Assembly: GCA_902799835.1 (NCBI GenBank)
Contig: CADCCF010000002.1
Location: 7,338 to 71,337 of the forward strand
Reading direction: 5' to 3'
Origin: an uncultured Pseudomonadota bacterium
Lineage (GTDB): Bacteria; Pseudomonadota; Alphaproteobacteria; RF32; CAG-239
Length of the DNA stretch: 64,000 bases
The translations under genes and the position numbers were made by a program. Positions within the stretch are counted from its first letter, which is position 1. Every line of letters starts with the position of its first letter. A model generated the notes under the pieces. The model made no database searches. It was not told the DNA's origin and saw only the letters and a list, made by a program, of their open reading frames with translations. Below are positions 9,995-64,000 of the stretch, piece by piece.

Positions 9995-10037
9995 GAACCG
10001 AATTTATATTATAATAACAACCACTGGAGAAAAAAGA

Positions 10038-10256
10038 ATGACAACTATTAATTTTGAAGACATTAAATTGAGCGATGAAGAGAGACAACCTTGTGAAGTA
10101 TGGACAAGAGTTATGGGTTATCTTCGTCCTTATTCTGAGTTCAATGTAGGCAAAAAGTCTGAATTTGATTCGCGTGTTTGCTTCTCAGAACTCAAAGCAG
10201 TTAATGGCTGCGCTTGTCATTGTGAATGTGATGTTGAAGCTATTGCGGCAGAATAA
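10038..10256 (+). CDS. Small 72-aa protein carrying the NrdD-type glycyl-radical loop (TRVMGYLRP) and a Cys-rich tail. It is the separately encoded C-terminal piece of NrdD.
   Basis: Own SD GGAG 9 nt upstream of ATG 10038 and 43 nt after the nrdD stop. Sequence MTTINFEDIKLSDEERQPCEVWTRVMGYLRPYSEF...CACHCECD. Confidence 0.65.
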   Translation: MTTINFEDIKLSDEERQPCEVWTRVMGYLRPYSEFNVGKKSEFDSRVCFSELKAVNGCACHCECDVEAIAAE

Positions 10257-10263
10257 TTAACTA

Positions 10264-10968
10264 ATGAATAATTCAAAAATTGTAGTCGGCGGCGTTGAGA
10301 AATTCAGCGCCGTTGATTTTCCCGGGGTATTAAGTGCTGTAGTGTTTATGCAAGGATGCCCGTGGAAATGCCCTTATTGCCACAATGCCTCTATCCGAGA
10401 AATATTGAAAGAAAACAGCTTTTCATGGGAGAAGTTTGTTGATTTTTTACGCAAAAGGGTGGGGCGATTAGATGCCGTAACTTTTTCCGGCGGTGAGCCT
10501 TTGGTGCAGGATTGTTTGGGCGATGCTATTAAGGAAGTTAAAGAGTTAGGATTTAAAATTGGATTGCATACCGGAGGTTATCGTCCGGAGCATTTGGCTA
10601 AAATATTACCTCTGGTCGATTGGGTCGGCTTAGATATAAAGGCACCTTTTGATGAGGCAAAATATCAGGCAATTATCAGGGTTAATCATCTGAAAAAAGT
10701 TGAAGATAGTTTAGATTTGTTGCTTCAATGGGGCGGTGATTTTGAATGTCGCACCACTTGTGATCCGCGGTTCTTAAGTATTGAAGATTTATGGGTAATC
10801 GCTAAAACCTTAAAAGAAAAGGGTGTAAAAAAGTATTTTCTGCAAAAATATCGTCCGGTTGAAAGTGATAAAACCAGCACTGATGATATGTGTGAAAGGT
10901 TAGTTAGCGATTCGGGATTGTTGAAGTATTTGCAAGAAAATTTTGAGAATTTTGAAGTTAGGAAATAA
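10264..10968 (+). CDS. nrdG: Anaerobic ribonucleotide reductase activating enzyme (radical SAM).
   Basis: CPWKCPYCHN radical-SAM cluster motif with a glycine-rich SAM site FSGGEPL. Position is right after nrdD. Confidence 0.85.
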   Translation: MNNSKIVVGGVEKFSAVDFPGVLSAVVFMQGCPWKCPYCHNASIREILKENSFSWEKFVDFLRKRVGRLDAVTFSGGEPLVQDCLGDAIKEVKELGFKIGLHTGGYRPEHLAKILPLVDWVGLDIKAPFDEAKYQAIIRVNHLKKVEDSLDLLLQWGGDFECRTTCDPRFLSIEDLWVIAKTLKEKGVKKYFLQKYRPVESDKTSTDDMCERLVSDSGLLKYLQENFENFEVRK

Positions 10969-11133
10969 ATCAGCTTTTTTACAATATATTAACTACAATA
11001 ACACTAATATATTAAACGATTTTGAGAATACAGAGTCGCTTTTTTGTTGCAATTTAGACAAAAATATGCTACAAATAAAGAAGACATGGATTTTTGATGT
11101 CAAATCTAACGCAATATTTTAAGGAGAAAAGTC

Positions 11134-11808
11134 ATGATTACAAATGAAGATGCTGCTAGATTATTTGAACAACCGACCATCGAAGCCATCCCTAGTGATA
11201 TGAAACGTATTATAATTCCGGCTTACGGATTTGCTGGAGCTAAAGATGCAAAGAGGCAAGAATGGGGTGCTGATGGTCCGTTTATGGAAGATGTTAAAGG
11301 TCTTGTTTTCAAGAATCCTAAGGATGATGCTGATCAAGTATTAAAACAAGGCGATGGAGTTTTGATTTGTTATGATGCCCCTGGTCGCAAAGAGAAAATT
11401 GAACAATATTTGAAAGATAATCCGTCCACCTTTATGACCGCAGGACAAGTGCAAAGGTTTATTGATTATTTGACTACAAATGTTGTTAATGAAGGTGGAA
11501 AAGCTGATTTATGGGATTCAGACTTAGCTTTTGCTTCTGGATTAAAAGATGCACCAGCGAAAGAAGAAATGAAACCGGGAATGGTTTTCACCGGAGTTAA
11601 GAAAAAGGAAGCTGTTCAAGCTGTGTTTGTTAAAGAGGGAGTACAGTTTGAAGGAGCTGAGGGTAAACCCCAAACTGCTGGTAAGGATGGAGCATATATA
11701 ATTAAAGATAGTGCCGGATTAAGAATGATTCAAAAAGCCGAGTTTGCCAAGGCTTATCAAATTACCAAGATACCTCCGGTTCAATCAAATGACAAAGTCA
11801 GAGGTTAA
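11134..11808 (+). CDS. Hypothetical soluble protein (224 aa).
   Basis: SD AAGGAG upstream. A terminator follows. Confidence 0.55.
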   Translation: MITNEDAARLFEQPTIEAIPSDMKRIIIPAYGFAGAKDAKRQEWGADGPFMEDVKGLVFKNPKDDADQVLKQGDGVLICYDAPGRKEKIEQYLKDNPSTFMTAGQVQRFIDYLTTNVVNEGGKADLWDSDLAFASGLKDAPAKEEMKPGMVFTGVKKKEAVQAVFVKEGVQFEGAEGKPQTAGKDGAYIIKDSAGLRMIQKAEFAKAYQITKIPPVQSNDKVRG

Positions 11809-11825
11809 TTAGTAAAAAACAGAAA

Positions 11826-11850
11826 GGAGCCTTGCGGCTCCTTTTTTTAT
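11826..11850. terminator. Bidirectional terminator between convergent genes.
   Basis: ggagcc-ttgc-ggctcc plus TTTTTTT. Confidence 0.7.
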
Positions 11851-13014
11851 TTAAGCACACAGTTCTTCGGCTAACTTTTCCAATTGGGCTAAATCAGCTT
11901 TTTTCATAGCCGATTTGATAGTTATTTTATTTTCGCAAAATGTCAGATTTTTGCAACCTTCCAAAGCCTCACACATTTTTTTTGCTGCCATTGGTGCCCA
12001 AGATCCGTTTTCAATCAAACCGACTTGGCGATTCTGATAATTTTTATCACGTAATTGAGCAATAAAGTTTTCCATCTGCGGCATCATGCCGGCATCATGG
12101 GTGGAACTGGCTAAAACCAAGCGATCATACCGAAAAGCATCTTCCACTGCTTCAGCCATATCTTCACGTGCCAAATCGGTAATAGCCGCTTTTTCTCCTT
12201 TTGCTTCCAACATTTCTTTCAGTTTTAATGCCGCGGCTTTAGTGTGTCCATAAATTGAAGTATAAGCAATAAATATACCTTTGTCTTCCGGCTCATAACT
12301 ACTCCAAATATTATATTTGTTTAGATAATAATCCAAATTTTCGGTCAGCATCGGACCATGCAGAGGGAATATTTTTTGAATATCAAGATTAGCCGCTTTT
12401 TTCAAAACATTCTGTACTTGAACTCCGTATTTGCCGACAATATTGAAATAATAGCGGCGTGCTTCACAAGCCCAATCTTCATCCGTGTCCAAAGTGCCAA
12501 ATTTACCGAATGCATCAGCTGAGAACAAAACTTTGTCCTTTTTATCATAGGCAAACATGACTTCCGGCCAATGCACCATCGGTGCGGCAATAAAAGATAA
12601 TTTATGTTCACCCAAATCCAATTCAACGCCTTCTTTGACTTCAATTTTGCGATTCGTCACATCCAAATTTTCAAAAAATTGCTCTAATAGGGCAAAACTT
12701 TTGGCGCTGGAAACCATTTTCGCCTCAGGATAGGCTTCCATAAATTTAGCAATATTGGCGGCATGATCCGGTTCCATATGCAAAACAACCAGATAATCCG
12801 GTTTTTTATCGCCCAAAACCGCTTGCAAATTGGCAAACCATTCTTGCGTAACTCGTTTATCAGCAGTATCAACAATTGCAATCTTCGTATCTTTAATTAC
12901 ATAGGAATTATAAGTTATCCCGTTGGGAACAATATATTGCCCCTCAAATAAATCGAGAGTTTTATCGTCCACGCCGATATAAAAAATATCGTTGGTTAAT
13001 TGGATATTTTGCAT
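11851..13014 (-). CDS. Flavodiiron protein (metallo-beta-lactamase-like plus flavodoxin domains; rubredoxin:oxygen / NO reductase type).
   Basis: HMEPDH di-iron motif and a C-terminal flavodoxin-like domain. The start is at ATG 13014 with SD AAGGA, which avoids overlap with cysS. The track ORF extends to 13062. Confidence 0.8.
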   Translation of the reverse strand: MQNIQLTNDIFYIGVDDKTLDLFEGQYIVPNGITYNSYVIKDTKIAIVDTADKRVTQEWFANLQAVLGDKKPDYLVVLHMEPDHAANIAKFMEAYPEAKMVSSAKSFALLEQFFENLDVTNRKIEVKEGVELDLGEHKLSFIAAPMVHWPEVMFAYDKKDKVLFSADAFGKFGTLDTDEDWACEARRYYFNIVGKYGVQVQNVLKKAANLDIQKIFPLHGPMLTENLDYYLNKYNIWSSYEPEDKGIFIAYTSIYGHTKAAALKLKEMLEAKGEKAAITDLAREDMAEAVEDAFRYDRLVLASSTHDAGMMPQMENFIAQLRDKNYQNRQVGLIENGSWAPMAAKKMCEALEGCKNLTFCENKITIKSAMKKADLAQLEKLAEELCA

Positions 13015-51994: not shown

Positions 51995-52789
51995 ATGTCA
52001 AAGATTCATCCTTCAGCCGTCATTGAGGACGGCGCAAAGATTGCCGATACCGCCGAGATCGGTCCTTTCTGTTGGATTAGCTCACAAGCCAAAATTGGTG
52101 AAAATGTAAGACTTTTGGCTCGTGTTACTGTTTATGGTGATACCACCATTGGTGATGGCACTGTTGTTTTTCCGGGTGCTTGCTTAGGTACCGGTCCGCA
52201 GGATCATGGTAACGAGTTTGTCCCCGGCGCCAAAGTTATTATTGGCAAAAATAACGTCATCAGAGAAAATGTTACAATACATGCCGGAACACCCAAAGAG
52301 CACCAAACAACGGTTGTCGGTGATAATTGCATGTTTATGGTCAATTCCCATGTTGCTCACGATTGTGTCGTCGGTAACGATGTGATTATGACCAACAATG
52401 CGGTTATTGGCGGACACGTTCGTCTCGGCGATGGTGCTGTTTTGGGCGGCAATTGTGCAGTACATCAATTCTGCCGTATTGGTCGCAAAGCTATGATTGG
52501 CGGCCTTTCCGGAGTTGCCAGAGATGTTATTCCTTTTGGTATTGTTACCGGAGATCGCGGCAAATTGCGCGGACTTAATCGCATCGGCATGATGCGCAGC
52601 GGTATGTCGGAAGCTGATGTTAAATCGGTTAGTCATGCTTTTATGTACATTTTCAAGAGCGAAGAAGACAACTTTGACATTCGTTTGGAAAAAGCTAAAG
52701 AAAAGTACAAAGATAATCCGTTAGTAATGGAGCAAGTTGAGTTTATAATTGAAGGTTTGGCCGGTCGTCGCAAAGTTATGACGGCTTGA
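51995..52789 (+). CDS. lpxA: Acyl-ACP--UDP-N-acetylglucosamine O-acyltransferase.
   Basis: Hexapeptide repeats and an LpxA C-terminal domain. Confidence 0.9.
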   Translation: MSKIHPSAVIEDGAKIADTAEIGPFCWISSQAKIGENVRLLARVTVYGDTTIGDGTVVFPGACLGTGPQDHGNEFVPGAKVIIGKNNVIRENVTIHAGTPKEHQTTVVGDNCMFMVNSHVAHDCVVGNDVIMTNNAVIGGHVRLGDGAVLGGNCAVHQFCRIGRKAMIGGLSGVARDVIPFGIVTGDRGKLRGLNRIGMMRSGMSEADVKSVSHAFMYIFKSEEDNFDIRLEKAKEKYKDNPLVMEQVEFIIEGLAGRRKVMTA

Positions 52790-52825
52790 GGCTAGGGAAG
52801 AATACCTCTTAGAAGAGGTTGTAAA

Positions 52826-52857
52826 TTGGCTTGGCACTTTTGTTAAGCCAATTTTTA
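52826..52857 (+). terminator. Terminator after lpxA.
   Basis: ttggctt-(12-nt loop)-aagccaa plus TTTTT. Confidence 0.4.
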
Positions 52858-52996
52858 CAAAGCTTGATATATGATGGCTTAAGATTTCTTTTGATAAATG
52901 GTCGTCAGTTTGTTTTTTGTAAGCAATGGCCGCTGTTTTTTGAGAAATAATGTGTCGTTATAATATCAAGTTTTTTTTATATTAAAGGGCTGATGA

Positions 52997-53845
52997 ATGA
53001 CCAATAAAACACGCAAACTCGGAATTATTGCAGGCGGGGGAAATATACCGGCAATGCTTATTGAACATTGTCGGCAAAATGGCATAGATTTTGTCGCTTT
53101 GGCCATAGAGGGTAACGCCGATAAATCATTTTTTAAGGGTGAGGAATTTGCGTATCGCTGGATTCGCATCGGTCAAGCCGGTAGCGGATTTAAGTATTTT
53201 GCTCAAGAAAAAGTTACCGATGTAGTGATGATTGGCACTATTCGCCGCCCCAGTTTTTTTGATTTGGTACCTGATTTGCGTACTACGGCCTTTTTTGCCA
53301 AAGTCGGAGCTAAGGCATTGGGTGATGACGGTATTTTGCGAGCAGTCATATCCGAAATTGAAAAAGAGGGTATGCATGTTAAAGGTATTCATGAACTGAT
53401 GCCGGATTTACTGATTTCGCAAGGCTTATTGACCAAACATAAACCTTCTAAATCTGATATGATTGATATTCAAAGGGGAGTGGAGGTTGCTTTTGCACTC
53501 GGCAAATTGGATGTCGGACAATCGGTTGTTGTACAACATGGCTTGGTACTGGGTGTCGAAGGGATTGAAGGTACCGACGAGTTGATACGCCGTTGTAAAG
53601 ACTACCGTCGTAAGGGTGACGGCGGAGTTTTGGTCAAACTGCGCAAACCGCAACAAGATATGCGGATTGATTTGCCGACCATTGGGATAAAAACCATTGA
53701 GGGGGCTCATGAGAGCGGTTTGCGAGGTGTTGTTGTCCATGCCGGCAACGGCTTGATTGTCGACCAAGCACAAGCGGTTGCTTTGGCTGATAAATATGGA
53801 ATGTTTATAATGGGGGTACTCCCGGATGAGCTCTGCAAAAATTAA
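52997..53845 (+). CDS. lpxI: UDP-2,3-diacylglucosamine hydrolase LpxI (DUF1009).
   Basis: LGIIAGGGNIP N-terminus. Position is between lpxA and lpxB. Confidence 0.8.
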   Translation: MTNKTRKLGIIAGGGNIPAMLIEHCRQNGIDFVALAIEGNADKSFFKGEEFAYRWIRIGQAGSGFKYFAQEKVTDVVMIGTIRRPSFFDLVPDLRTTAFFAKVGAKALGDDGILRAVISEIEKEGMHVKGIHELMPDLLISQGLLTKHKPSKSDMIDIQRGVEVAFALGKLDVGQSVVVQHGLVLGVEGIEGTDELIRRCKDYRRKGDGGVLVKLRKPQQDMRIDLPTIGIKTIEGAHESGLRGVVVHAGNGLIVDQAQAVALADKYGMFIMGVLPDELCKN

Positions 53846-54983
53846 GGTCTATTTGATTGCCGGTGAACCGAGCGGTGATTTGCTGGGCTCGCGTTTGATG
53901 CGTGCCTTGCGTCAAAAAAATGCTGTTGAATTTTGCGGCATTGGCGGTGATACCATGCAGCAGGAAGGATTGCAATCACTGTTTGATATCTCTGAATTGG
54001 CGGTCATGGGATTGGCCGAAGTTATTCCCAGTATTCCTAATGTTTTGCGCCGGATTAAACAGACAGTTGCCGATATAGTCAAGCAAAAACCTGATGTGGT
54101 AGTGACGATTGATAGTTGGAGTTTTTGTAGCCGGATTCATAAAAAATTACGCAAACTTAATACCGGAATAAAACAAATTCACTACGTTGCACCGCAAGTT
54201 TGGGCATGGAAAAAGCGTCGCGCTAAAACTATGTATCAATATGTTGATGAGTTATTGACACTGCTTCCTAACGAACCGCAATATTTTACCCCTTATCACT
54301 TAAAAACAACTTTTGTCGGACATCCGGTAATTGAAAGCGCCGCCTTAAAGGCTGACGGTGCAGAATTTCGTCGTCGCCACAATATTGCCGATAACAAACA
54401 AATTATTTCAATTCTTCCCGGTTCGCGCCACAATGAAGTAAGTCGGCTTTTGCCTGATTTTTTGGCTGCGGCACAAAAGCTGTATGCCAAACACCCTGAT
54501 ATGTTTTTTGTTCTGCCGACGGTAACCACGGTTGCCCAAAGAGTTCAAAATATGGTTAAAGGTTGTGATTTACCCTTGTTAGTGGTAACAAGCGAAAACG
54601 AAAGGTATGGTGCTTTTCAGGCTTCATCAGCGGCAATAGCGGCTTCCGGCACTGTGGCTTTGGAGTTGGCAATGTGTCGCATTCCTCACATTATTGCCTA
54701 TAAAATTTCGCCTTTGACTTATTACTTGGCTAAGAGCTTGGTAAAAATAAAATATGTAAATTTAACCAATATCATGTTGGATCGTCCGGTTATTCCTGAG
54801 CTTTTGCAACATGATTGTACTCCGCAAAATATTGCTGATCATATTGATGAGCTCTTAGCCCATGCACAAGTTTATCAAAAACAAATGCAGGGTTTTGATG
54901 ATATAAAGCAATATTTGAGCAATGGTAATGATACGCCGAGCAATCAGGCTGCGGCAGTAATATTAAAGGCTATACAATGTTAG
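53826..54983 (+). CDS. lpxB: Lipid-A-disaccharide synthase.
   Basis: GT19 family (YLIAGEPSGD). Confidence 0.9.
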   Translation: MSSAKIKVYLIAGEPSGDLLGSRLMRALRQKNAVEFCGIGGDTMQQEGLQSLFDISELAVMGLAEVIPSIPNVLRRIKQTVADIVKQKPDVVVTIDSWSFCSRIHKKLRKLNTGIKQIHYVAPQVWAWKKRRAKTMYQYVDELLTLLPNEPQYFTPYHLKTTFVGHPVIESAALKADGAEFRRRHNIADNKQIISILPGSRHNEVSRLLPDFLAAAQKLYAKHPDMFFVLPTVTTVAQRVQNMVKGCDLPLLVVTSENERYGAFQASSAAIAASGTVALELAMCRIPHIIAYKISPLTYYLAKSLVKIKYVNLTNIMLDRPVIPELLQHDCTPQNIADHIDELLAHAQVYQKQMQGFDDIKQYLSNGNDTPSNQAAAVILKAIQC

Positions 54984-56908
54984 AATTATTGATATCTTGT
55001 TGGAAATCAGATTATTCCCGCCGCATTTTGTGGCTTCCGGTGTTGTTTGGCTGCGGTATCGGCAGTTATTTTCTTCTGTCTGAGGAACCTAATAAATGGA
55101 TAACTTTATGGACAGTAGAAGCGCTGATAGTGATTGCGATTATTTTTCGCCGGCGTATGCGGGTGCTTTATTATTTAGCGGCAATTTTTGTTTTTGTATT
55201 GGGTTTTGCCATCATACAATTAAAAAGCATTTATATCAGCAATTTTCCGCATGATTTATATGGCAAAACCTCTTATCTCAAAGGCGTGATTACTAAAATA
55301 GACACCAATTACAAAGGCAAACAACGCTTCACTTTTGATGAATTGGAAGATTTTGATGGCAATAAATATTCCGGCAAATATCGCATTGTGCAACGCTCTA
55401 ATGACAAAGTTGCGTCAATTGGTGATTGTGTTGAGCAAGTTGGAACCATTATGCCTCCGGCAGTAGAAACGGCAGTGGGCGGATATCAGCTTGACCGCAA
55501 AAATTATTTTGAGGGACTTAAAGGTAGCGGTTATGCCGAAAGCAATTTTTTCCCCGCAGAATGTGATGTTTCATCTCCGGGCTGGTTTGGTTCACAAATA
55601 GCACGGTTACGCCAAAGATTGGTGCGCCACATTATGCGCTTGTTGCCGCCTGCGGAATCTTCGGTTGCGGCAGCGATTATTGCCGGTGATAAAAGTTTGA
55701 TTTCTCCTGAGCAATATGATCAATATCGCAATTCGGGTTTGGCGCATTTCTTGGCCATCTCCGGTTTGCATATGAGTTTATTATGCGGATTGATGTTTTT
55801 TATCGTGCGCTTAGGCTTAGCACTTGTTCCGCCGATGGCTTTACGCTTCGATTCGCGTAAAATTGCAGCTTGGTGTGCGCTGATTACCAGCTTTATCTAT
55901 TTGTTAATTTCCGGCATGGCAGTTCCGGCACAAAGAGCATTTATTATGATTGCGGTCGTTTTAATCGGAGTCATAACCAACCGTCGGGCAATTTCGATGT
56001 ATTCGGTTGGGTTGGCGGCATTTATCATACTGTTATTATCGCCGGAAGTTCTTATTTCGCCCAGTTTTCAGATGTCATTTGCCGCAACCATCGGGTTGGT
56101 GGCTTTTTATGAAAAATATTCGAGCGCAATTCACTCATATTTTGCCAAAGGCAACAAGTTTTGGCAGGGTTTTAAGATATATATATTCGGTATATTGATT
56201 ACAGACTTTATTGCCTCACTTTCTACTTTGCCTTTTGCCATTTATCATTTTAACATGGTGGCAATTTATACCACTTTGGGCAACTTGGCTTCCGGACCGA
56301 TTATCGGTTTTGTCATCATGCCTTGTGTGCTGTTCAGCCTGTTGCTGTTACCTTTGGGTTGGGACAAGCCGTTTTTAATCGCAGCAGGCTTTGGTATCGA
56401 TTGGGTTAATCATATTACGGAATATGTTTCTTCATTGCCTTATGCCGGATTTTATGTTCAGGCGATGCCGACCATCGGACTTTTGGCTATAGTCTTTGGC
56501 GGATTGTGGTTGAGTATTTGGTTTTGTCGTTGGCGAATTTGGGGCGCTTATGCCATAGGCTTAGGCTTGTTGAGTATATTATTTGTGCGCACCCCTGATG
56601 TGCTGGTTGGCGACCATCTCAAAGCGATAGCTTTTAAGAATGATGATGGTAAATTAGAACTGGTTTCAACTCGTGGCGGTGGTTTTATCAAACAATCATG
56701 GCGACAACGTTATCCGACCTCCGATAATATAACCATGCTCAAAGCTCATCCTGAACTTTGGATTGAGGGAGATATTGTTACCATCGGTCGTCAGCAATAC
56801 AATATTAAGGATATTATCGGTTTCAGTGCCTATAAAAAAGGTGATGATTATATCGTCAAAACCATCCGTGATGACATTGGCAACCGCAAGTGGAATGAAA
56901 ATAATTAA
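54977..56908 (+). CDS. comEC: ComEC/Rec2 family membrane protein with no MBL domain.
   Basis: DUF4131 plus competence-domain polytopic protein. Confidence 0.75.
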   Translation: MLELLISCWKSDYSRRILWLPVLFGCGIGSYFLLSEEPNKWITLWTVEALIVIAIIFRRRMRVLYYLAAIFVFVLGFAIIQLKSIYISNFPHDLYGKTSYLKGVITKIDTNYKGKQRFTFDELEDFDGNKYSGKYRIVQRSNDKVASIGDCVEQVGTIMPPAVETAVGGYQLDRKNYFEGLKGSGYAESNFFPAECDVSSPGWFGSQIARLRQRLVRHIMRLLPPAESSVAAAIIAGDKSLISPEQYDQYRNSGLAHFLAISGLHMSLLCGLMFFIVRLGLALVPPMALRFDSRKIAAWCALITSFIYLLISGMAVPAQRAFIMIAVVLIGVITNRRAISMYSVGLAAFIILLLSPEVLISPSFQMSFAATIGLVAFYEKYSSAIHSYFAKGNKFWQGFKIYIFGILITDFIASLSTLPFAIYHFNMVAIYTTLGNLASGPIIGFVIMPCVLFSLLLLPLGWDKPFLIAAGFGIDWVNHITEYVSSLPYAGFYVQAMPTIGLLAIVFGGLWLSIWFCRWRIWGAYAIGLGLLSILFVRTPDVLVGDHLKAIAFKNDDGKLELVSTRGGGFIKQSWRQRYPTSDNITMLKAHPELWIEGDIVTIGRQQYNIKDIIGFSAYKKGDDYIVKTIRDDIGNRKWNENN

Positions 56909-56920
56909 GATTGCAAAGTA

Positions 56921-56954
56921 AAAAAAACAGCTTGGCTTTGAGAAAGCCAAGCTG
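56921..56954 (-). terminator. Hairpin with a minus-strand T-run. It terminates the minus-strand 57120 gene and is possibly bidirectional.
   Basis: aaaaaaa cagcttggcttt-gaga-aagccaagctg. Confidence 0.55.
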
Positions 56955-57119
56955 TCTTGCTATTTAATCGTTAAATAGTAACTTTTCATCTATAGTTTGA
57001 GAAAACTAACAAATATAACACCCAGAATCACGATGCCGTATTTTTTTTGATTTAAATCTCAGCTTCCGAGTCGGAATCAAGAATGACGATAAAAAATATA
57101 TTATAAAATTTTTTTATGA

Positions 57120-57791
57120 TTATTTCAAATTACAAAAATCTAAAATTGCCGGTTTTAGCTCAGCATAAATTTTTGCCATATCTTCTTCATTTTCGGCATG
57201 CCATGTTTCAACCGTAATCAGCGGAATTTTTCTTTCAATTCCCGCCCAAGTGCCAAACGAACCGTTGGTCGGATAGCCGATTTCATCAACCAAACGATAA
57301 CCGCAAATTTGGCTGAATTTTAAGGCCAGTTCTTTCGCCGGTCCATCATAATCAATCAGGTGCAAATCCGAGTGGATGGAGAGTATGCGCTTAAAGTTGT
57401 AACCATTAATCAGATCCATCATGATTTGCGTTTCAATCTCGGATGCCGGTTGACCGGAGGAAATTTCTTTGACATGCGGATTGACGCAGGTTGAGCTGAA
57501 ATTTTCGGTTGGATAATTGCGATTGAGATCAACCCCATGTCCGTTCGCCCGAGTGAAAAGCTTTTTCCCGCTGGGGTTTAGGCAAGGCAAAATATAGATA
57601 TTATAAGGGGATTGCCACTTATTTTGCTCTAATTCCGACAGCAATTGTCGCAAGCAAAATTCCCCCTCCGGCTCATCACCATGAAAACGTGCCACCAACA
57701 AAATATTGTCATCAGATGGATACGATGGATAGCACAATAATTCTATCGGATTACCGAAACTATCAACCCAATCCTTAACTTTAGTCAGCAT
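57120..57791 (-). CDS. M14-family zinc carboxypeptidase-like protein (MpaA / succinylglutamate desuccinylase-aspartoacylase type).
   Basis: HGDEPEG zinc-binding motif and a downstream H. Confidence 0.65.
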   Translation of the reverse strand: MLTKVKDWVDSFGNPIELLCYPSYPSDDNILLVARFHGDEPEGEFCLRQLLSELEQNKWQSPYNIYILPCLNPSGKKLFTRANGHGVDLNRNYPTENFSSTCVNPHVKEISSGQPASEIETQIMMDLINGYNFKRILSIHSDLHLIDYDGPAKELALKFSQICGYRLVDEIGYPTNGSFGTWAGIERKIPLITVETWHAENEEDMAKIYAELKPAILDFCNLK

Positions 57792-57793
57792 AA

Positions 57794-58510
57794 TCAGCGT
57801 CCTACTACTTTGGTGAAAAATCTTTCTTTGATTGCAATATTACGTAATACATCAGAAAATCGGCTTATTCCGATTGATACCGGAGACAAACAAAATTCCG
57901 TTTTATTGTTTTGCGATGTGATGTGGTCAAAATCCGAAGTATGAGCTACCTTTTTAGCACACAAAACATTCTCATGAAATTTTTTGCCATTAGTATTATT
58001 ATCATTATATTCCACGATAAATTGATTAAAACCTTTTTGCTGTAATTCTTGAAATACCGTTTTAATAAAATAAGTTCCTAAACCTTGCTTTTGAGCTTCC
58101 GGCGCAATATAAATCTGATTTAAGATTAGTGTATTTTTCTCATAGTTGGGATTCCGAGTATATTGAATTTTACGTTGACGCGCCATTTTCCATCCGTCTA
58201 ACTCGCCGGTCTCATGCTCAACGGCTTGCAAATCTTGATTAATATAGCGATAATCTTCAGGTATGGGATTAAGTCTCATGATTCCACAAGGCTTGCCATT
58301 CTGATGCAAGACATAGATAAAAGGTTCATTGCCCTTTTCTTGATTAATTGCCCACTTTTCCAGTTTTTTTATAAATGAAAATTTGGTGTACAAAGCCATC
58401 TCTTCTTTGGTTTTATAGCCTTTTGACAGCTCATTATATGAGCGCATATAGACATCAGCCAAGGGTAAAATTTCTTTATAGTTGCCGGCGAACTTTTTAA
58501 CTTTCAACAT
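57794..58510 (-). CDS. GNAT family N-acetyltransferase.
   Basis: Acetyl-CoA motif QKQGLGTYFIKTVFQEL. ATG 58510 has SD GAGG; the track ORF extends to 58573. Confidence 0.65.
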   Translation of the reverse strand: MLKVKKFAGNYKEILPLADVYMRSYNELSKGYKTKEEMALYTKFSFIKKLEKWAINQEKGNEPFIYVLHQNGKPCGIMRLNPIPEDYRYINQDLQAVEHETGELDGWKMARQRKIQYTRNPNYEKNTLILNQIYIAPEAQKQGLGTYFIKTVFQELQQKGFNQFIVEYNDNNTNGKKFHENVLCAKKVAHTSDFDHITSQNNKTEFCLSPVSIGISRFSDVLRNIAIKERFFTKVVGR

Positions 58511-58675
58511 ATTATCAACCTCGCAAAATCTCAAGTGTGCGGGTATAATAAGATTTTGTTTATTTTTTGTCAAGTAAATATTCTTTCAAATGTCGGTTGT
58601 GTATCAGAAAGTTTTTTTGTTGCGTATAACAAATTAAAATGCTACAAAAACAAGCAAGGGAGAGTGGTTTTGAAT

Positions 58676-59080
58676 ATGGAAATCGCAGAAATAATTGACA
58701 ACATGTCTTTCTTTGACTCATGGGAGGATAAATATCGCTATATTATTGAAATTGGCGAAAGTTTGCCCGATTTGCCGCCCGAGTTTTTGACCGAAGAATG
58801 GAAGGTGAAGGGTTGTCAATCTCAGGTTTGGCTTGTTCCGCAAAAGAAGGCTGATAATACTCTGTCTTTTTTGGGAACCAGTGATGCGATGATTGTTAAA
58901 GGCTTGATAGGCATTGTCTTGAGTATATATAACAACAAAACCCCGTCCGAGATTAAAAGTATGGATATTGATGGAATTTTTGCTTCTTTGGGCTTGCGTG
59001 AACATTTATCACCTTCACGGCGCAACGGGTTAGAGGCGATGATTGAAAAAATTAAGCATTATGCGGTTGTTATGGAGTAA
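58676..59080 (+). CDS. sufE: SufE-like cysteine desulfuration protein.
   Basis: SufE family with the conserved Cys in KVKGCQSQVWL. The start is the internal ATG 58676 with SD. Confidence 0.8.
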   Translation: MEIAEIIDNMSFFDSWEDKYRYIIEIGESLPDLPPEFLTEEWKVKGCQSQVWLVPQKKADNTLSFLGTSDAMIVKGLIGIVLSIYNNKTPSEIKSMDIDGIFASLGLREHLSPSRRNGLEAMIEKIKHYAVVME

Positions 59081-59092
59081 GGTAAAAGCGGT

Positions 59093-60295
59093 ATGAATAT
59101 TCATGAGTATCAAGCCAAAAATGTACTGAAGCACTTCGGAATAAGTGTTCCGAATGGCAAGATAGCTTATACTCCTAAAGAAGCTTCAGCCGTAGCCGTC
59201 GAAGTCAGCAGTCATGGACCATGGGTGCTCAAGGCGCAAATTCAATCCGGTGCCAGACAATCAGGCTTTTTCTTAGAAAAATCGGCCGGTGTTGCCGGAG
59301 GAATTCGTCTGGTCAAAAATCGTCGTGCTGTTGCCAGCGAAACCGAAAAAATGCTTGGCAATACCTTGGTTACCATCCAAACCGGACCAAAGGGCAAAGT
59401 GGTTAATAAAATTTATGTTGAGGCTTTTCAAAAAGTCAAAAAAAGTTTCTACCTCGGGTTGACCATAGATCGCATAACTTCTGAATTGGTTTTGTTGGCA
59501 GCAAATGTTCCTGATGGCAATATTATTGAAAAAGCGATTAATAATCCTGACGAAATTTTACACCTTTCGCTCAATACCTTGGGCACAACTTCACAACAGC
59601 AGATTCAGCACATAATGAAGTTTTTAAAATTACCCAAACGCACTCTTCCTCACTTGGAGCAGTTGGTTAATGGTTTGCACAAAGCCTTTTTGGGTTTGGA
59701 TGCTACTATGATAGAGATTAATCCGGTTGGCGTTACATCTTCCGGCGAATTATTAGCGTTGGATGCTAAAATTTCGCTTGATGACAATGCTCTGTTTCGC
59801 CATCCTGATATTGCAACTCTGCGTGATGACAGTGATTTGGACGAGCGAAAATTACAGGCTAGACGCTATAAGTTTACTTATCATGATTTTTCAGGATCGG
59901 TTGGATGTATTGTCAACGGCGATGGATTGGCGCTGTCAACGATGGATTTGCTCAAAGAAAAAGGCAGTGGTGCCGCGTGTTTTATCAATGTAAAAGGCGG
60001 TGTTGATAAGGACAAAATCGCTAACGGCATCAAGATAATCATGACCAATCCGCGCGTTGAAGGAATATTGCTCAATATTTTGGGCGGTTTTGTGCGATGC
60101 AATTTGATAGCAGATGGAATTATTGCCGCCGCCGCCGAGGCCGGACTTAATGTTCCGATGGTGATTCGCTTTGAAGGAACCAATAAAGATATGGCTCATG
60201 AAATTTTGAACAATTCACATTTGCCGGTTATATGGGCAGATACTCAAGAAGAAGCAGTCGACAAACTGCTTAAAGAAATGGAGGCTGCGGTCTAA
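59093..60295 (+). CDS. sucC: Succinyl-CoA synthetase beta subunit.
   Basis: ATP-grasp plus ligase-CoA domains. Confidence 0.92.
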   Translation: MNIHEYQAKNVLKHFGISVPNGKIAYTPKEASAVAVEVSSHGPWVLKAQIQSGARQSGFFLEKSAGVAGGIRLVKNRRAVASETEKMLGNTLVTIQTGPKGKVVNKIYVEAFQKVKKSFYLGLTIDRITSELVLLAANVPDGNIIEKAINNPDEILHLSLNTLGTTSQQQIQHIMKFLKLPKRTLPHLEQLVNGLHKAFLGLDATMIEINPVGVTSSGELLALDAKISLDDNALFRHPDIATLRDDSDLDERKLQARRYKFTYHDFSGSVGCIVNGDGLALSTMDLLKEKGSGAACFINVKGGVDKDKIANGIKIIMTNPRVEGILLNILGGFVRCNLIADGIIAAAAEAGLNVPMVIRFEGTNKDMAHEILNNSHLPVIWADTQEEAVDKLLKEMEAAV

Positions 60296-61164
60296 TGGCG
60301 ATTTTTGTTAACAAAGATACTCTTGTTGTATGCCAAGGTATAACCGGTACCCAAGCCTCATTCCATGTCAAAAATTCATTGGATTATGGCACCAAAGTTG
60401 TCGCCGGCGTAACCCCTGATAAAGGCGGAACTTTGCATTTAGGTCTTCCGGTTTTTAACACTTTACAAGAAGCCGTCAAAGAAACCAAAGCTACTGCCAG
60501 TGTTATGTATGTTCCGGCATCACAGTTGAAAGCGGCTGTGCGTGAGGCGGTTGAAGCCGAGTTGGATTTGGCAGTCAGTATTGCTGCCGATGTTCCTTTG
60601 CGAGATATGCTTGAAATAAAAGCAATGCTTCGTGGTTGCAAAACCAAACTTATCGGCCCGAATACGCCGGGAATTATCACTCCCGATGAAGCCAGATTAG
60701 GTATTTTCCCCGTTGATATTCATAAAAAAGGCAATATCGGCGTTGTTTCGCGTTCATCAACTTTGACCTATGAGGCAGTTCTTTCCATCAATCGTGCTGG
60801 ATTGGGACAATCAACAGTAGTTGGTTTGGGTGATGACATTTTGATTGGTGTTGATTTTATTGATGTGATATCAGCGTTTAATCATGATGATGAAACCAAG
60901 GCAATCGTGATGATAGGTCAGCTGAGCGGGCCGTTTGAAGAAGCTGCTGCCGAATGGTATAAACGCCAACACAACAAAAAACCGGTTATAGCCTTTGTTG
61001 CCGGTGATGCCATGCCGTTTGATCACAATATGGGTTATGCCGGAGATATCCTGACCAATGGCTATGTTTCGGTTCAGGATAAAAAAGATGCGTTAGCTGA
61101 TGCCGGTATGATAGTGGTAAACACTGTCAGCGACATAACTAAAGCGTTGGTTAACCTAAAATGA
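60295..61164 (+). CDS. sucD: Succinyl-CoA synthetase alpha subunit.
   Basis: CoA-binding and ligase domains with a phospho-His region. Confidence 0.92.
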   Translation: MAIFVNKDTLVVCQGITGTQASFHVKNSLDYGTKVVAGVTPDKGGTLHLGLPVFNTLQEAVKETKATASVMYVPASQLKAAVREAVEAELDLAVSIAADVPLRDMLEIKAMLRGCKTKLIGPNTPGIITPDEARLGIFPVDIHKKGNIGVVSRSSTLTYEAVLSINRAGLGQSTVVGLGDDILIGVDFIDVISAFNHDDETKAIVMIGQLSGPFEEAAAEWYKRQHNKKPVIAFVAGDAMPFDHNMGYAGDILTNGYVSVQDKKDALADAGMIVVNTVSDITKALVNLK

Positions 61165-61886
61165 CGATTTGGCATAAAATTCTCAATTTTATATTACCGC
61201 CTCGTTGCGTCATCTGCGGAAAAATTTTGCCTGAAGATAAAGGCCTTTGTGATACTTGCATTCGGGAAATTGAATTTCTCAAATCTCCGGTTTGCCATCG
61301 TTGCGGTCAACCTTTGGGCGAAGTTGCGGCTGAAGATAATGTCCATTTGTTGTGCGGACAATGTTTGCAAAACAAACGTAAACCTTTTCGCCTTTCACGT
61401 TCAGCTTTTGCCTATGATGATTTTTCCAAAAAATTAATTTTGGATTTTAAATTTTACGATCACACGGAATTAGCTTCGCTACTGGCCAAGATGATGTTTG
61501 TTGCCGGCAACGAAATTTTTAAATCCGGTGTGGATGTGATAATACCGGTTCCCTTGCATTACACTCGTTTGATTTGGCGCAAGTATAATCAGTCATCACT
61601 TTTGGGTAAAGAATTGTCTGAGTTGACCGGTATTGAGGTTAATAATTCCGTTTTGCGTAAGATTCGTCGAACCAAGTCACAAGTAGAATGCAAAGGGTTT
61701 GCCCGATTGAAAAATTTGCAAGGTGCATTTGGTGTAAAGAATGGTCAACTAATCAAGGGTAAAAGAGTTTTGTTGATAGATGATGTTCTCACAACCGGCT
61801 CAACGCTTAAAGAATGTACTCAGGTTTTGAAACACGCCGGAGCCAAATCGGTTGATTGGCTGACCGTAGCGCGCACATCAATTTGA
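61161..61886 (+). CDS. comF: ComF-family protein (zinc finger plus phosphoribosyltransferase domain).
   Basis: CxxC...CxxC N-terminus. PRTase motif VLLIDDVLTTGST. Confidence 0.8.
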   Translation: MTIWHKILNFILPPRCVICGKILPEDKGLCDTCIREIEFLKSPVCHRCGQPLGEVAAEDNVHLLCGQCLQNKRKPFRLSRSAFAYDDFSKKLILDFKFYDHTELASLLAKMMFVAGNEIFKSGVDVIIPVPLHYTRLIWRKYNQSSLLGKELSELTGIEVNNSVLRKIRRTKSQVECKGFARLKNLQGAFGVKNGQLIKGKRVLLIDDVLTTGSTLKECTQVLKHAGAKSVDWLTVARTSI

Positions 61887-61991
61887 TTGTTAACATATTG
61901 TTAGCATTTTTTTGCTATACTGTTATCGGTTGGACAAAAAAGCTTGATTTTTTTATTATTTTATGATAGCACCCAATAATAGAACTATGGA

Positions 61992-62363
61992 TTGTTGAAT
62001 AAAATGATAATTGATAGCAATAATAAGATACAAAAAAGTATCCTGACTAATAAGTGCTTTTACCAAACAACAGCACGGATTATGCGTGACTTTGAAGAAA
62101 AGGGATATGCAAATTCGGCTGATGAGACGGTAAAGGCCATTTCGGCGTATCATGCTATCGTTCAAAAAAGAGTCAAAAATAACTACAATGCCGACTATAA
62201 TGCCGCCTTCAAACGTATTGATGATGCGATAAGCACATTGGCCAATCAAGTGTTTTATGACTGCGACAAAAAAAGTTTGGATTATGCTTATCAATCTTTT
62301 GAACATTTTGATCATATTAAGGCGATTGTAACTCGCCAACGCGCCAAAAAAGGCGAATTGTAA
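61992..62363 (+). CDS. Hypothetical protein (123 aa).
   Basis: ORF only. No strong SD. Confidence 0.4.
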   Translation: MLNKMIIDSNNKIQKSILTNKCFYQTTARIMRDFEEKGYANSADETVKAISAYHAIVQKRVKNNYNADYNAAFKRIDDAISTLANQVFYDCDKKSLDYAYQSFEHFDHIKAIVTRQRAKKGEL

Positions 62364-62475
62364 TTTTTTAATCCACCACGTATCTTGTTTTTGTAATATT
62401 GCCGTTGCGAAAATGTTTTTAATGGTCTAACATAGCTTCATTAACTACAATAGCATTGAAAGGCTTGAAGTAACT

Positions 62476-64000
62476 ATGACTAAAATATCACTAATCGGAT
62501 GTGGTCGTTGGGGCACATTTTTAGGATGGTATGTTGCCAATTATGGCAAGGCTGACGAAGTTTATATGTATGATATTCCGACTTCACCTAATTTTATTGA
62601 ACTGGAAAAAACTCGCAAAAACTCTTATTTGGCACTGAGTGACAATATGTTTTTGTTTGATAATTTGGCTAAGGTTTTGGAAAATGATTTTATTATCATA
62701 TCTATCGGATGCCAATATTTTCGAGGCCTTTGTAAAGAATTAAGTGCATATGATTTGAAAGGCAAAACATTTTTGTTGGCGATGAAAGGACTGGAAGAGC
62801 CATCTGGCGAAAGAATGCTTGATATTATGCGGGAAGAAATTAGCCAAAATATTTATATTGCTACTCTCGGTGGTCCTGGACATGTGCAAGATTATATGGC
62901 AGGCATACCTTCGGCTGCGGTTGTTGATAGTGATGATGATATGACCAAACAATACGTCATAAACATTATGCAGAGCCCCCTTATCAGATTATATTATGGA
63001 AATGATTTGATAGGTAACCAGATAGGAGCAGCCTTAAAAAATGTAATGGGGTTAGCTGCAGGTATTCTTGACGGATTGGGATGGAGTGGCCTTAAAGGTG
63101 CGTTAATAGCCCGTGCTCCGGTTGAGGTTGGACGTTTGATAAAATTTTACGGTGGCAATCCGATGACCGCTTATGGACTGTCGCACTTAGGAGATTATGA
63201 AGCTACGTTATTTTCCAAACATAGTCATAACCGCATGTTTGGTGAAAAATTTGCTCGTGGAGAAACATTTGAGAAGTTGGCCGAGGGTGTGCCAACCTTA
63301 AAAGCAGTAAAAATTATCGCTGATAATAACAATATTGATATGCCGATTTCACAAGCTTTATACCAAGCCATTTATGAAAAAGCAGACATTAAAGTTGTTA
63401 TCAAGAAATTATTTGAGCGATCATTAAAACAGGAATTTAAAGATATAAGCGCAACAAATTCCCAAACTACTAAAAAAATTGCTGAAATAGACGTCGAAAT
63501 TAAAACGGGCGATATAGTTAATGAAGAGGCAAATTGCATAGTTGTACCTGAATTTATCAACAAGGCTTCTTATGGCGGAGTAGGAGCATCAATTTGCCGA
63601 GCAGGTATGTATGCGGGAATTAAAGAATTTGATGATATGGCTCAAAGTAAAGATTTAAAATATGGTGATGCTATTTTTACTAAGAGTGGTAAAAATAATG
63701 TGTATTTATCTAACGTTGTAACCATCGGTGCTGATAGATCTCATCAGTTTATGACGGTGTTCAGTGCTGTTATGCATACTTTAGCACAGGCTGAAAAACT
63801 TGGTTTGAAAAGTGTTGCTATTCCTGAGTTGGGAACTGGCAAAGATGGAACTTTGACATCTCATCAATCAGCCAAAGCTATATTGGGAGCTGTTTATCAA
63901 TTTTCCAGAATGCGCCAAACCAAATCAGTTGAAAAAGTGGTAGTATTAAATTATCACGGTTCAATAGAAAAAGCCCAAAAGGTATTGGAAGAAGAAAGCT
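62476..64000 (+). CDS. gpsA: NAD(P)H-dependent glycerol-3-phosphate dehydrogenase with an in-frame C-terminal extension of at least 180 aa that resembles a macro (ADP-ribose-binding) domain. It runs off the window end.
   Basis: ATG 62476 (LIGCGRWGT Rossmann motif). The GpsA body ends near ...QALYQAIYEK... and the frame then stays open to 64000. Macro-like motifs are IKTGDIVNEEANCIVVP, YGGVGASICRAG and LKSVAIPELGTGKDG. It is absent from the ORF track because it has no stop in the window. Confidence 0.8.
   Translation, partial: MTKISLIGCGRWGTFLGWYVANYGKADEVYMYDIPTSPNFIELEKTRKNSYLALSDNMFLFDNLAKVLENDFIIISIGCQYFRGLCKELSAYDLKGKTFLLAMKGLEEPSGERMLDIMREEISQNIYIATLGGPGHVQDYMAGIPSAAVVDSDDDMTKQYVINIMQSPLIRLYYGNDLIGNQIGAALKNVMGLAAGILDGLGWSGLKGALIARAPVEVGRLIKFYGGNPMTAYGLSHLGDYEATLFSKHSHNRMFGEKFARGETFEKLAEGVPTLKAVKIIADNNNIDMPISQALYQAIYEKADIKVVIKKLFERSLKQEFKDISATNSQTTKKIAEIDVEIKTGDIVNEEANCIVVPEFINKASYGGVGASICRAGMYAGIKEFDDMAQSKDLKYGDAIFTKSGKNNVYLSNVVTIGADRSHQFMTVFSAVMHTLAQAEKLGLKSVAIPELGTGKDGTLTSHQSAKAILGAVYQFSRMRQTKSVEKVVVLNYHGSIEKAQKVLEEES

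Follow-up and report, generated by a model that had tools for sequence, protein, structure and literature searches.

Catalytic macro domains are recognized by a small set of sequence signatures: MacroD-like enzymes carry Nx(6)GG[V/L/I]D and G[V/I/A][Y/F]G together with a catalytic Asn/Asp pair, and PARG enzymes carry GGGX6-8QEE (PMC8120803). Activity requires an Asn or Ser and a Gly flanking loop 1, and a hydrophobic residue followed by an aromatic residue in loop 2 (PMC10221186). MacroD-like enzymes can nevertheless stay active without the Asp (PMC8120803), and macro-domain phosphatases acting on phosphorylated ADP-ribose (ADPR) are reported in the literature. Here we describe a gene in which a macro domain is joined in frame to the C-terminus of the glycerol-3-phosphate dehydrogenase GpsA. 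The gene starts at position 62476 on the plus strand of a 64,000-nucleotide stretch (the window) of contig CADCCF010000002.1, from an uncultured alphaproteobacterium. Literature searches turned up no relevant paper on a GpsA-macro fusion or on the ADP-ribosylation of GpsA. The protein combines two known domain families in an architecture that is new, with no new mechanism evident so far.

The reading frame beginning with the ATG at 62476 is free of stops through position 64000 (508 codons in the window), and the fused gene was missing from a mechanically made list of open reading frames (ORFs) because its frame exits the window edge. Homology to GpsA ends at residue 321, after which 187 codons remain open within the window, in agreement with a prior interpretation of the letters alone (the sequence-only reading), which had put the extension at no fewer than 180. 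By arithmetic from base composition (~37% GC, ~7% stops in a random frame), the chance of 187 open codons is ~1e-6. That reading had also placed the end of the gene outside the window, and inspection of downstream sequence agreed: contig L014, which matches window positions 52476-64000 at 100% identity over 11,525 nt and extends further, has the stop codon at window-equivalent positions 64075-64077, 77 nt beyond the window edge. The full-length product (P0273) has 533 residues, of which the N-terminal 508 are identical to the window's translation. On the 3′ side of the stop, a hairpin of −18.3 kcal/mol (z −4.5) precedes a run of U, and the fused gene terminates in this hairpin terminator of its own. 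The protein consists of GpsA (residues 1-321), a linker of 11 residues (322-332) and a whole macro protein (333-533), and the features discussed below are placed in the window as follows.

62476..63438, plus strand: GpsA half, residues 1-321 (Pfam N and C domains, alignment to 1z82 and 3k96)
62667..62673, no strand: recombination breakpoint in gpsA at codon ~65 (maximum chi-square on informative sites)
63439..63471, plus strand: linker KDISATNSQTT, residues 322-332 (between the end of unfused GpsA and the start of standalone macro proteins)
63472..64000, plus strand: macro domain, residues 333-508 in the window and on to 533 (Pfam Macro, AlphaFold2, Foldseek)
63544..63594, plus strand: macro loop 1 region PEFINKASYGGVGASI, residues 357-373 (profile alignments)
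63820..63849, plus strand: macro loop 2 IPELGTGKDG, residues 449-458 (comparison of 25 macro-family members)

A second fused protein (P0001, 533 aa) is encoded on the independent contig L001 with its frame intact and 79% DNA identity to the window gene. Its linker, KDITVSNLKTN, differs from that of the window by substitutions only, with no insertion, deletion or stop. Between the two fused genes, the ratio of nonsynonymous to synonymous divergence (dN/dS) was 0.028 for the GpsA half (dS 0.82) and 0.082 for the macro half (dS 1.15); given such low values, the extension is translated in frame and is under constraint. Neither fused copy has an in-frame ATG, GTG or TTG between residues 290 and 377, so the macro part, with no start codon of its own, is made only within the fusion. 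The architecture is very rare and the junction is A/T-rich with a run of seven A, which might lead one to suspect that two separate genes had been joined through an overlooked stop, a frameshift in the sequencing or a chimera in the assembly. However, the identical 533-aa protein is encoded by no fewer than five contigs, which come from different samples and assemblers (five of ENA origin, with further records from NCBI and Logan), the diverged copy keeps the frame across its linker, and selection acts in the fused frame. Together with the absent start codon, these observations rule out an artefact as far as sequence data can, and we regard its probability as vanishingly small. The stop or frameshift near 63430-63470 that the sequence-only reading had named as fatal to its own proposal was not found, and the fusion recurs both across separately made assemblies and in a diverged copy. 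Judged from recurrence and substitution patterns, we conclude that the fusion is genuine and that both halves are under strong purifying selection.

The GpsA half is, by homology, a complete NAD(P)H-dependent glycerol-3-phosphate dehydrogenase with predicted activity. Both Pfam domains score well above their cut-offs (NAD_Gly3P_dh_N at residues 3-155, 65.5 bits against 23.1; NAD_Gly3P_dh_C at residues 177-309, 119 bits against 25). The half aligns end to end with the solved enzymes of Thermotoga maritima (1z82, E-value 1.1e-40) and Coxiella burnetii (3k96), so that the complete GpsA fold claimed from the letters alone stands. In these alignments GCGRWG (residues 8-13, of the GxGxxG type), AMKGLE (102-107), ALKNV (186-190), LGDYEAT (238-244) and SHNR (250-253) fall on what we take to be the dinucleotide-binding glycine, substrate and catalytic motifs, the catalytic assignment being our presumption. 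The fused protein missed all NCBIfam GpsA cut-offs (best NF000942, 221.2 bits against 257), and this score marks what is probably a divergent GpsA subfamily, common to thousands of unfused relatives at the gpsA position. Unfused relatives end at ...K[KRQ]EF, which corresponds to residue 321 of the fusion. Seven residues are private to the two fused GpsA halves (H127Y, K142A, V144I, I191M, Y204S, K284N and T308V; window 62854-63399) and occur in at most 2% of 119 unfused relatives; H127Y, K142A, V144I, I191M and Y204S sit at positions that are 87-100% conserved among unfused GpsA.

The macro half is predicted with confidence to adopt the three-layer alpha/beta/alpha macro fold. Pfam Macro matches residues 367-458 with 27.7 bits (gathering cut-off 22), and the tail of the L001 protein scores 28.5 bits. 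An AlphaFold2 model of this half, built from a 15-sequence family alignment, reached a mean predicted local distance difference test score (pLDDT) of 93.7 and a predicted template modelling score (pTM) of 0.91. The best Foldseek matches of the model were PARP14 macro 3, macroH2A1.1, Af1521 and PARP15 macro 2 (probability 1.0, template modelling (TM) score 0.77-0.82, identity 17-24%). A sequence search of the PDB with the tail returned PARP14 macro domains, TTHA0132 and macroH2A, and a profile search against the PDB returned the same macro set as Foldseek, with TTHA0132 also matched. The sequence-only reading had called the extension macro-like, and both the hidden Markov model score and the predicted fold agree with it; the three motifs on which it relied are present at residues 345-358 (GDIVNEEANCIVVP), 367-377 (GGVGASICRAG) and 444-458 (LKSVAIPELGTGKDG).

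The extension corresponds to an entire standalone protein rather than to a fragment of one. The sequence MKKINNVKV of a standalone macro protein aligns, from Met1-Lys2-Lys3 on, to KKIAEIDVE of the fusion, and the match is full-length through the C-terminus, including a family-specific tail of ~25 residues (SY..E.G.K.F..W) common to fused and standalone members. Every family-invariant residue (in P..F, PE.GTG and LT..QSA) is kept in the fused macro. In 21 sequences of a 25-member comparison, loop 2 reads GTGIIG or GSGIIG, and GTGKDG occurs only in the two fused proteins. The window's macro also has an Asn where most members, including the one on L001, have an Asp, at what is presumably the adenine-contacting position of known macro domains.

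Known catalytic signatures are absent from this family. Regular-expression searches found Nx6GG[VLI]D in neither the two fused proteins nor the 23 other members (the window's sequence here is PEFINKASYGGVGA), and both G[VIA][YF]G (GTGKDG in the fusion, GTGIIG in the family) and the PARG signature GGGX6-8QEE were likewise absent from all 25 sequences. In profile alignments, a Pro stands opposite the Asn that opens the NAxN stretch of TTHA0132 and PARP14 macro 1, and VVPEF of the fusion's loop 1 aligns to VHPTN of macroH2A. We take this opening Asn to be the catalytic one of MacroD enzymes, and GGVGA to correspond to GGGVD, an interpretation of ours and not the result of a tool. The closest structures and profiles are those of reader macro domains, and the loop-1 Asn is replaced. 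Because the MacroD and PARG catalytic signatures are absent, binding is likelier than canonical hydrolysis, and on the strength of these missing motifs the macro family looks like an ADP-ribose reader rather than a canonical hydrolase. The ADP-ribose module proposed by the sequence-only reading holds as to macro class, and the hydrolysing option that it had offered is disfavoured.

A non-canonical hydrolase, in which the macro domain removes ADP-ribose, or its phosphate or acyl group, from GpsA or other targets by means of family-specific residues in place of the MacroD pair, is an unlikely alternative. Family-invariant polar residues do lie near both ligand loops (P-E/Q-F, P-E-x-G-T-G and Q-S-A), the loop-2 Lys could bind phosphate, and both the MacroD-like activity without the Asp (PMC8120803) and the reported macro phosphatases would be compatible with such chemistry. 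Against it, the loop-1 Asn/Ser and the loop-2 aromatic residue required in tested macro hydrolases are both missing, and the nearest structures are mostly non-catalytic readers (macroH2A, PARP14 macro 3, PARP15 macro 2). In addition, the precomputed Pfam annotation of the L014 and L001 genes holds no DarT or other ADP-ribosyltransferase domain. A second alternative is that ligand binding has been lost and that the macro is a degenerating or structural appendage, kept for solubility or oligomerization. Window-specific or fusion-specific changes (Asp to Asn, Ile-Ile to Lys-Asp) do fall at ligand-contacting positions. However, we consider this alternative very unlikely, since the macro half evolves at a dN/dS of 0.08 over a dS of 1.15 with the family invariants all kept, and the L001 copy retains the Asp. 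Moreover, Lys-Asp is the same in both diverged fused copies, which indicates that it is fixed and not drifting.

That the fusion is unusual, as the sequence-only reading had it, was borne out by its relatives. A database of 5.8 billion proteins held one 90%-identity cluster with the GpsA-macro architecture (P0001 and P0273), the other close GpsA relatives listed were of unfused length, and none of the further macro-family copies examined, at 17 genomic loci and in the database, had a GpsA part. Among the best 120 GpsA relatives only P0001 has a macro domain; the 119 others are 309-337 aa long, and some are 89% identical to the window's GpsA. The ancestral state was, by this distribution, probably an unfused GpsA. 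An exhaustive profile search was run with all 533 columns, so that GpsA and macro matches were mixed, and with one representative per 50% cluster; the member of the fused cluster was not among the 150 matches listed.

The macro family itself appears to be small, restricted to one clade and, as judged from its sequence relatives, seemingly without a characterized member. A word-indexed search found two standalone macro proteins, GTDB species representatives contributed four standalone macro genes, all in metagenome-assembled genomes (MAGs) of gut Alphaproteobacteria (two titles name deer rectum and colon), and JGI metagenomes contributed thirteen more loci. No gpsA homologue was present at any of these 17 loci (4 GTDB, 13 metagenome), no gpsA lay in the contexts of the two closest standalone macro genes, and no conserved neighbour gene of the standalone macro genes was found. 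A phage origin of the macro gained no support, since no PHROG matched it and a collection of viral contigs yielded no relative. At one locus (L007 419-4801), a standalone macro gene lies in a group of nucleotide-pyrophosphatase genes, comprising MazG, a NUDIX gene of divergent orientation and an inorganic pyrophosphatase, an arrangement not conserved in the other loci. A second, diverged macro paralogue (L010 9556-10185, minus strand; 209 aa, 30-39% identity) lies 3 kb from the first in the deer-rectum MAG.

Comparison with an unfused relative shows how the fused allele sits in its locus. The upstream genes of contig L002 follow one another as in the window (lpxB, comEC, M14 peptidase, GNAT, sufE, sucC, sucD, comF-like, 119-aa ORF, gpsA), its gpsA-dnaK gap is only 74 bp long (8979-9051), and its homology to the window ends at codon 322. 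Sliding identities place the window ~90% identical to L002 and ~78% identical to L001 upstream of gpsA, a relation that flips inside gpsA. Among 474 informative sites, those left of 62667-62673 are 82% L002-like and those to the right are 74% L001-like (maximum chi-square 142, reached in 0 of 1000 permutations). The C-terminal parts of GpsA are 97% identical between the fused proteins and at most 88.5% identical to any unfused one. Window-L001 similarity stops 51 nt past the stop of the fused gene, and dnaK of the window's genome is again closer to L002 (91.8%) than to L001 (87.7%). Because the ancestry of the allele (gpsA from codon ~65, macro and terminator) differs from that of its flanks, it has moved between related lineages by homologous recombination; by the identity shifts, the exchanged unit runs from the 3′ four-fifths of gpsA through the macro to the terminator. 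GC content at third codon positions is 24% in the macro, 31% in the gpsA part and 38-40% in sucC and sucD.

In the contigs compared, the gpsA-dnaK gap is a variable spot. On L014 the gap (11603-12931, immediately past the window's end) contains a 325-aa minus-strand gene with a hydrophobic, signal-peptide-like N-terminus and no Pfam match, and on L001 the gap (9603-11379) contains a 515-aa Lys-rich gene with no Pfam or PADLOC match. We rejected the idea that the macro and the 515-aa gene form a two-gene module, since the 325-aa gene takes the place of the latter in the window's genome and homology ends 51 nt after the stop. Flagellin genes lie between dnaK and recA in L002 and are absent from the window's genome. 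Directly 5′ of gpsA, a 119-123-aa ORF without a Pfam match (window 61992-62363, plus strand) is called in L001-L005 and L014. As to origin, a macro gene would have landed in the variable gpsA-dnaK spot, after which loss of the gpsA stop (TAA/TAG to AAA/AAG) would have let translation read through a spacer of ~30 nt into the macro gene. The first linker codon is AAA in the window and AAG in L001, one base from TAA and TAG, respectively. The fusion is probably an evolutionarily recent one, in an uncultured gut alphaproteobacterium.

Whether the two halves work together is a separate question, on which the evidence is thin in both directions. GpsA proteins of this subfamily are also fused sporadically to unrelated domains: P0124 to a MutT-like Nudix domain (456 aa), P0127 to a SpoU rRNA methylase (584 aa) and P0131 to an N-terminal helix-turn-helix domain (406 aa). 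These one-off fusions suggest that gpsA may fuse from time to time with whatever gene is its neighbour, and because of them we regard the macro fusion, too, as opportunistic. P0124 was set aside as a parallel link to ADP-ribose because its Nudix domain is generically MutT-like. The likeliest reading, with a probability of roughly 0.55, is a bifunctional protein with independently acting halves, born of an opportunistic fusion and maintained since. The GpsA half would, like its unfused relatives, use NAD(P)H to reduce dihydroxyacetone phosphate and so supply glycerol-3-phosphate for the synthesis of phospholipids. The macro half would be a module like macroH2A or PARP14 macro 3 that binds an ADP-ribose-type nucleotide without MacroD- or PARG-type hydrolysis. 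Although joined in a single chain, each would go on with its ancestral task, the fusion having been tolerated at first and maintained later, and the fusion-specific change from Ile-Ile to Lys-Asp in the ligand loop is a hint that some re-tuning followed.

Several points weigh against this interpretation. That the halves act independently is assumed by default, and the seven private GpsA substitutions together with the spread of the allele could mean co-adaptation. Some macro domains use other chemistry, and the family invariants P..F, PE.GTG and LT..QSA may have a part in it; the Asn at the adenine-contact position and the Lys-Asp of loop 2 mean that ADP-ribose binding could be altered. Because the exhaustive search used one representative per 50% cluster, further fused copies could hide behind unfused representatives. 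Finally, no pre-fusion intermediate with adjacent, separate gpsA and macro genes was found, and the proposed loss of a stop is inferred from one codon.

The principal alternative to independent halves is regulatory coupling, in which the macro senses ADP-ribose or an NAD-derived nucleotide and tunes GpsA in cis, or shields the Rossmann site from inhibition by ADP-ribose, and would thereby tie the supply of phospholipid precursors to NAD+ turnover. Both halves handle an ADP-ribose moiety (GpsA in NAD(P)H, the macro by its fold class), the GTGKDG ligand loop is exclusive to fused copies, the private GpsA substitutions lie at conserved positions, and the allele, having passed from one lineage to another, persists over a dS of ~1. 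However, the fusion is present in two lineages only, the macro family otherwise never adjoins gpsA, and the parallel GpsA fusions carry unrelated domains, the Nudix one being MutT-like and not specific for ADP-ribose. Persistence, moreover, would be expected even of a neutral fusion, because re-splitting needs a new stop and a new start, that is, several specific mutations. We therefore hold coupling to be possible but improbable. The link from lipid-precursor synthesis to NAD-derived signalling or de-ADP-ribosylation that the sequence-only reading had suggested gained no support from this analysis. A single-sequence AlphaFold prediction of the whole fusion gave a pLDDT of 39.

The macro family occurs in other architectures as well. 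One protein (P0134, 560 aa) joins an N-terminal family macro to a Tad4 domain (PF25186 at 361-443, 40 bits against a cut-off of 25), and Tad4 is described as a phage protein that blocks the active site of the Thoeris ThsB TIR domain (PMC13402655). This fusion is a hint of a possible role for the macro family in conflicts that involve NAD-derived signals. The same macro family is found in P0133, P0136, P0139, P0141, P0144, P0156, P0200 and P0211, among them tandem macro-macro forms and N-terminal macro domains on proteins of 446-774 aa that have long Lys/Glu-rich C-terminal parts without a Pfam match; the N-terminal stretches of P0144 and P0200 look signal-peptide-like by eye. A speculative extension, which we consider quite unlikely, is that the macro is a sensor of nucleotides from NAD+ breakdown or immunity (ADP-ribose, phosphorylated ADPR, or cyclic ADPR isomers produced by TIR, SIR2 or RES NADases) and that, through its link to GpsA, it throttles or protects the synthesis of glycerol-3-phosphate and phospholipids during NAD+ destruction. 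On this view the loop-2 Lys-Asp would be a re-tuning of ligand specificity, and the wider macro family (standalone, tandem, signal-peptide-like and Tad4-fused) would be a set of undescribed binders of ADPR nucleotides in host-associated Alphaproteobacteria.

If the halves are independent, as we favour, the gene would be a natural example of the birth of a fusion by loss of a stop codon in a variable intergenic spot and of its spread by recombination. It would then be useful for annotation and a caution against over-reading 'Rosetta stone' fusions. If the halves are coupled, it would be the first central lipid-precursor enzyme controlled by an ADP-ribose-type ligand, and would provide an experimental handle on a macro family without a characterized member.

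Among known systems, the best structural and profile matches to the fused macro are macroH2A, PARP14 macro 3 and PARP15 macro 2. Like the macroH2A-type readers, the fused macro has a Pro in loop 1 and lacks both the MacroD Asp and the loop-2 aromatic residue; unlike them, it is bacterial, only 17-24% identical, and has the family tail SY..E.G.K.F..W, the LT..QSA motif and a loop 2 of its own. The MacroD hydrolases (MACROD1/2, Escherichia coli YmdB, Oceanobacillus OiMacroD and Af1521) share its fold, with profile E-values of 1e-10 to 1e-12, but the fused macro is without both of their signatures and the catalytic Asn/Asp pair. The PADLOC profile for DarG of the DarTG system matches weakly, at 21.8 bits, and its match is limited to the macro part (positions 2-122 out of 329); the fused macro differs from DarG in lacking the DarG C-terminal domain and in being fused to a metabolic enzyme. 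DarTG was rejected as an identity for the locus, given this macro-only match and the absence of a DarT (DUF4433) domain from the Pfam annotation of the neighbouring genes called on L014 and L001. The nearest relatives are the standalone macros of ~205 aa (202-207; P0121, P0122, P0128 and loci L010-L013), which match residues 333-533 over their full length at 38-50% identity and share motifs and tail with the fused macro. Unlike the fusion, they are separate genes in variable contexts that never adjoin gpsA, and their loop 2 reads GTGIIG. With the bacterial GpsA enzymes 1z82 and 3k96, residues 1-321 share the common two-domain fold signature and the aligned active-site motifs, and they occupy the position on the chromosome that the gene conserves in related gut Alphaproteobacteria. 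The window's protein differs from these enzymes in its added C-terminal macro domain (212 residues).

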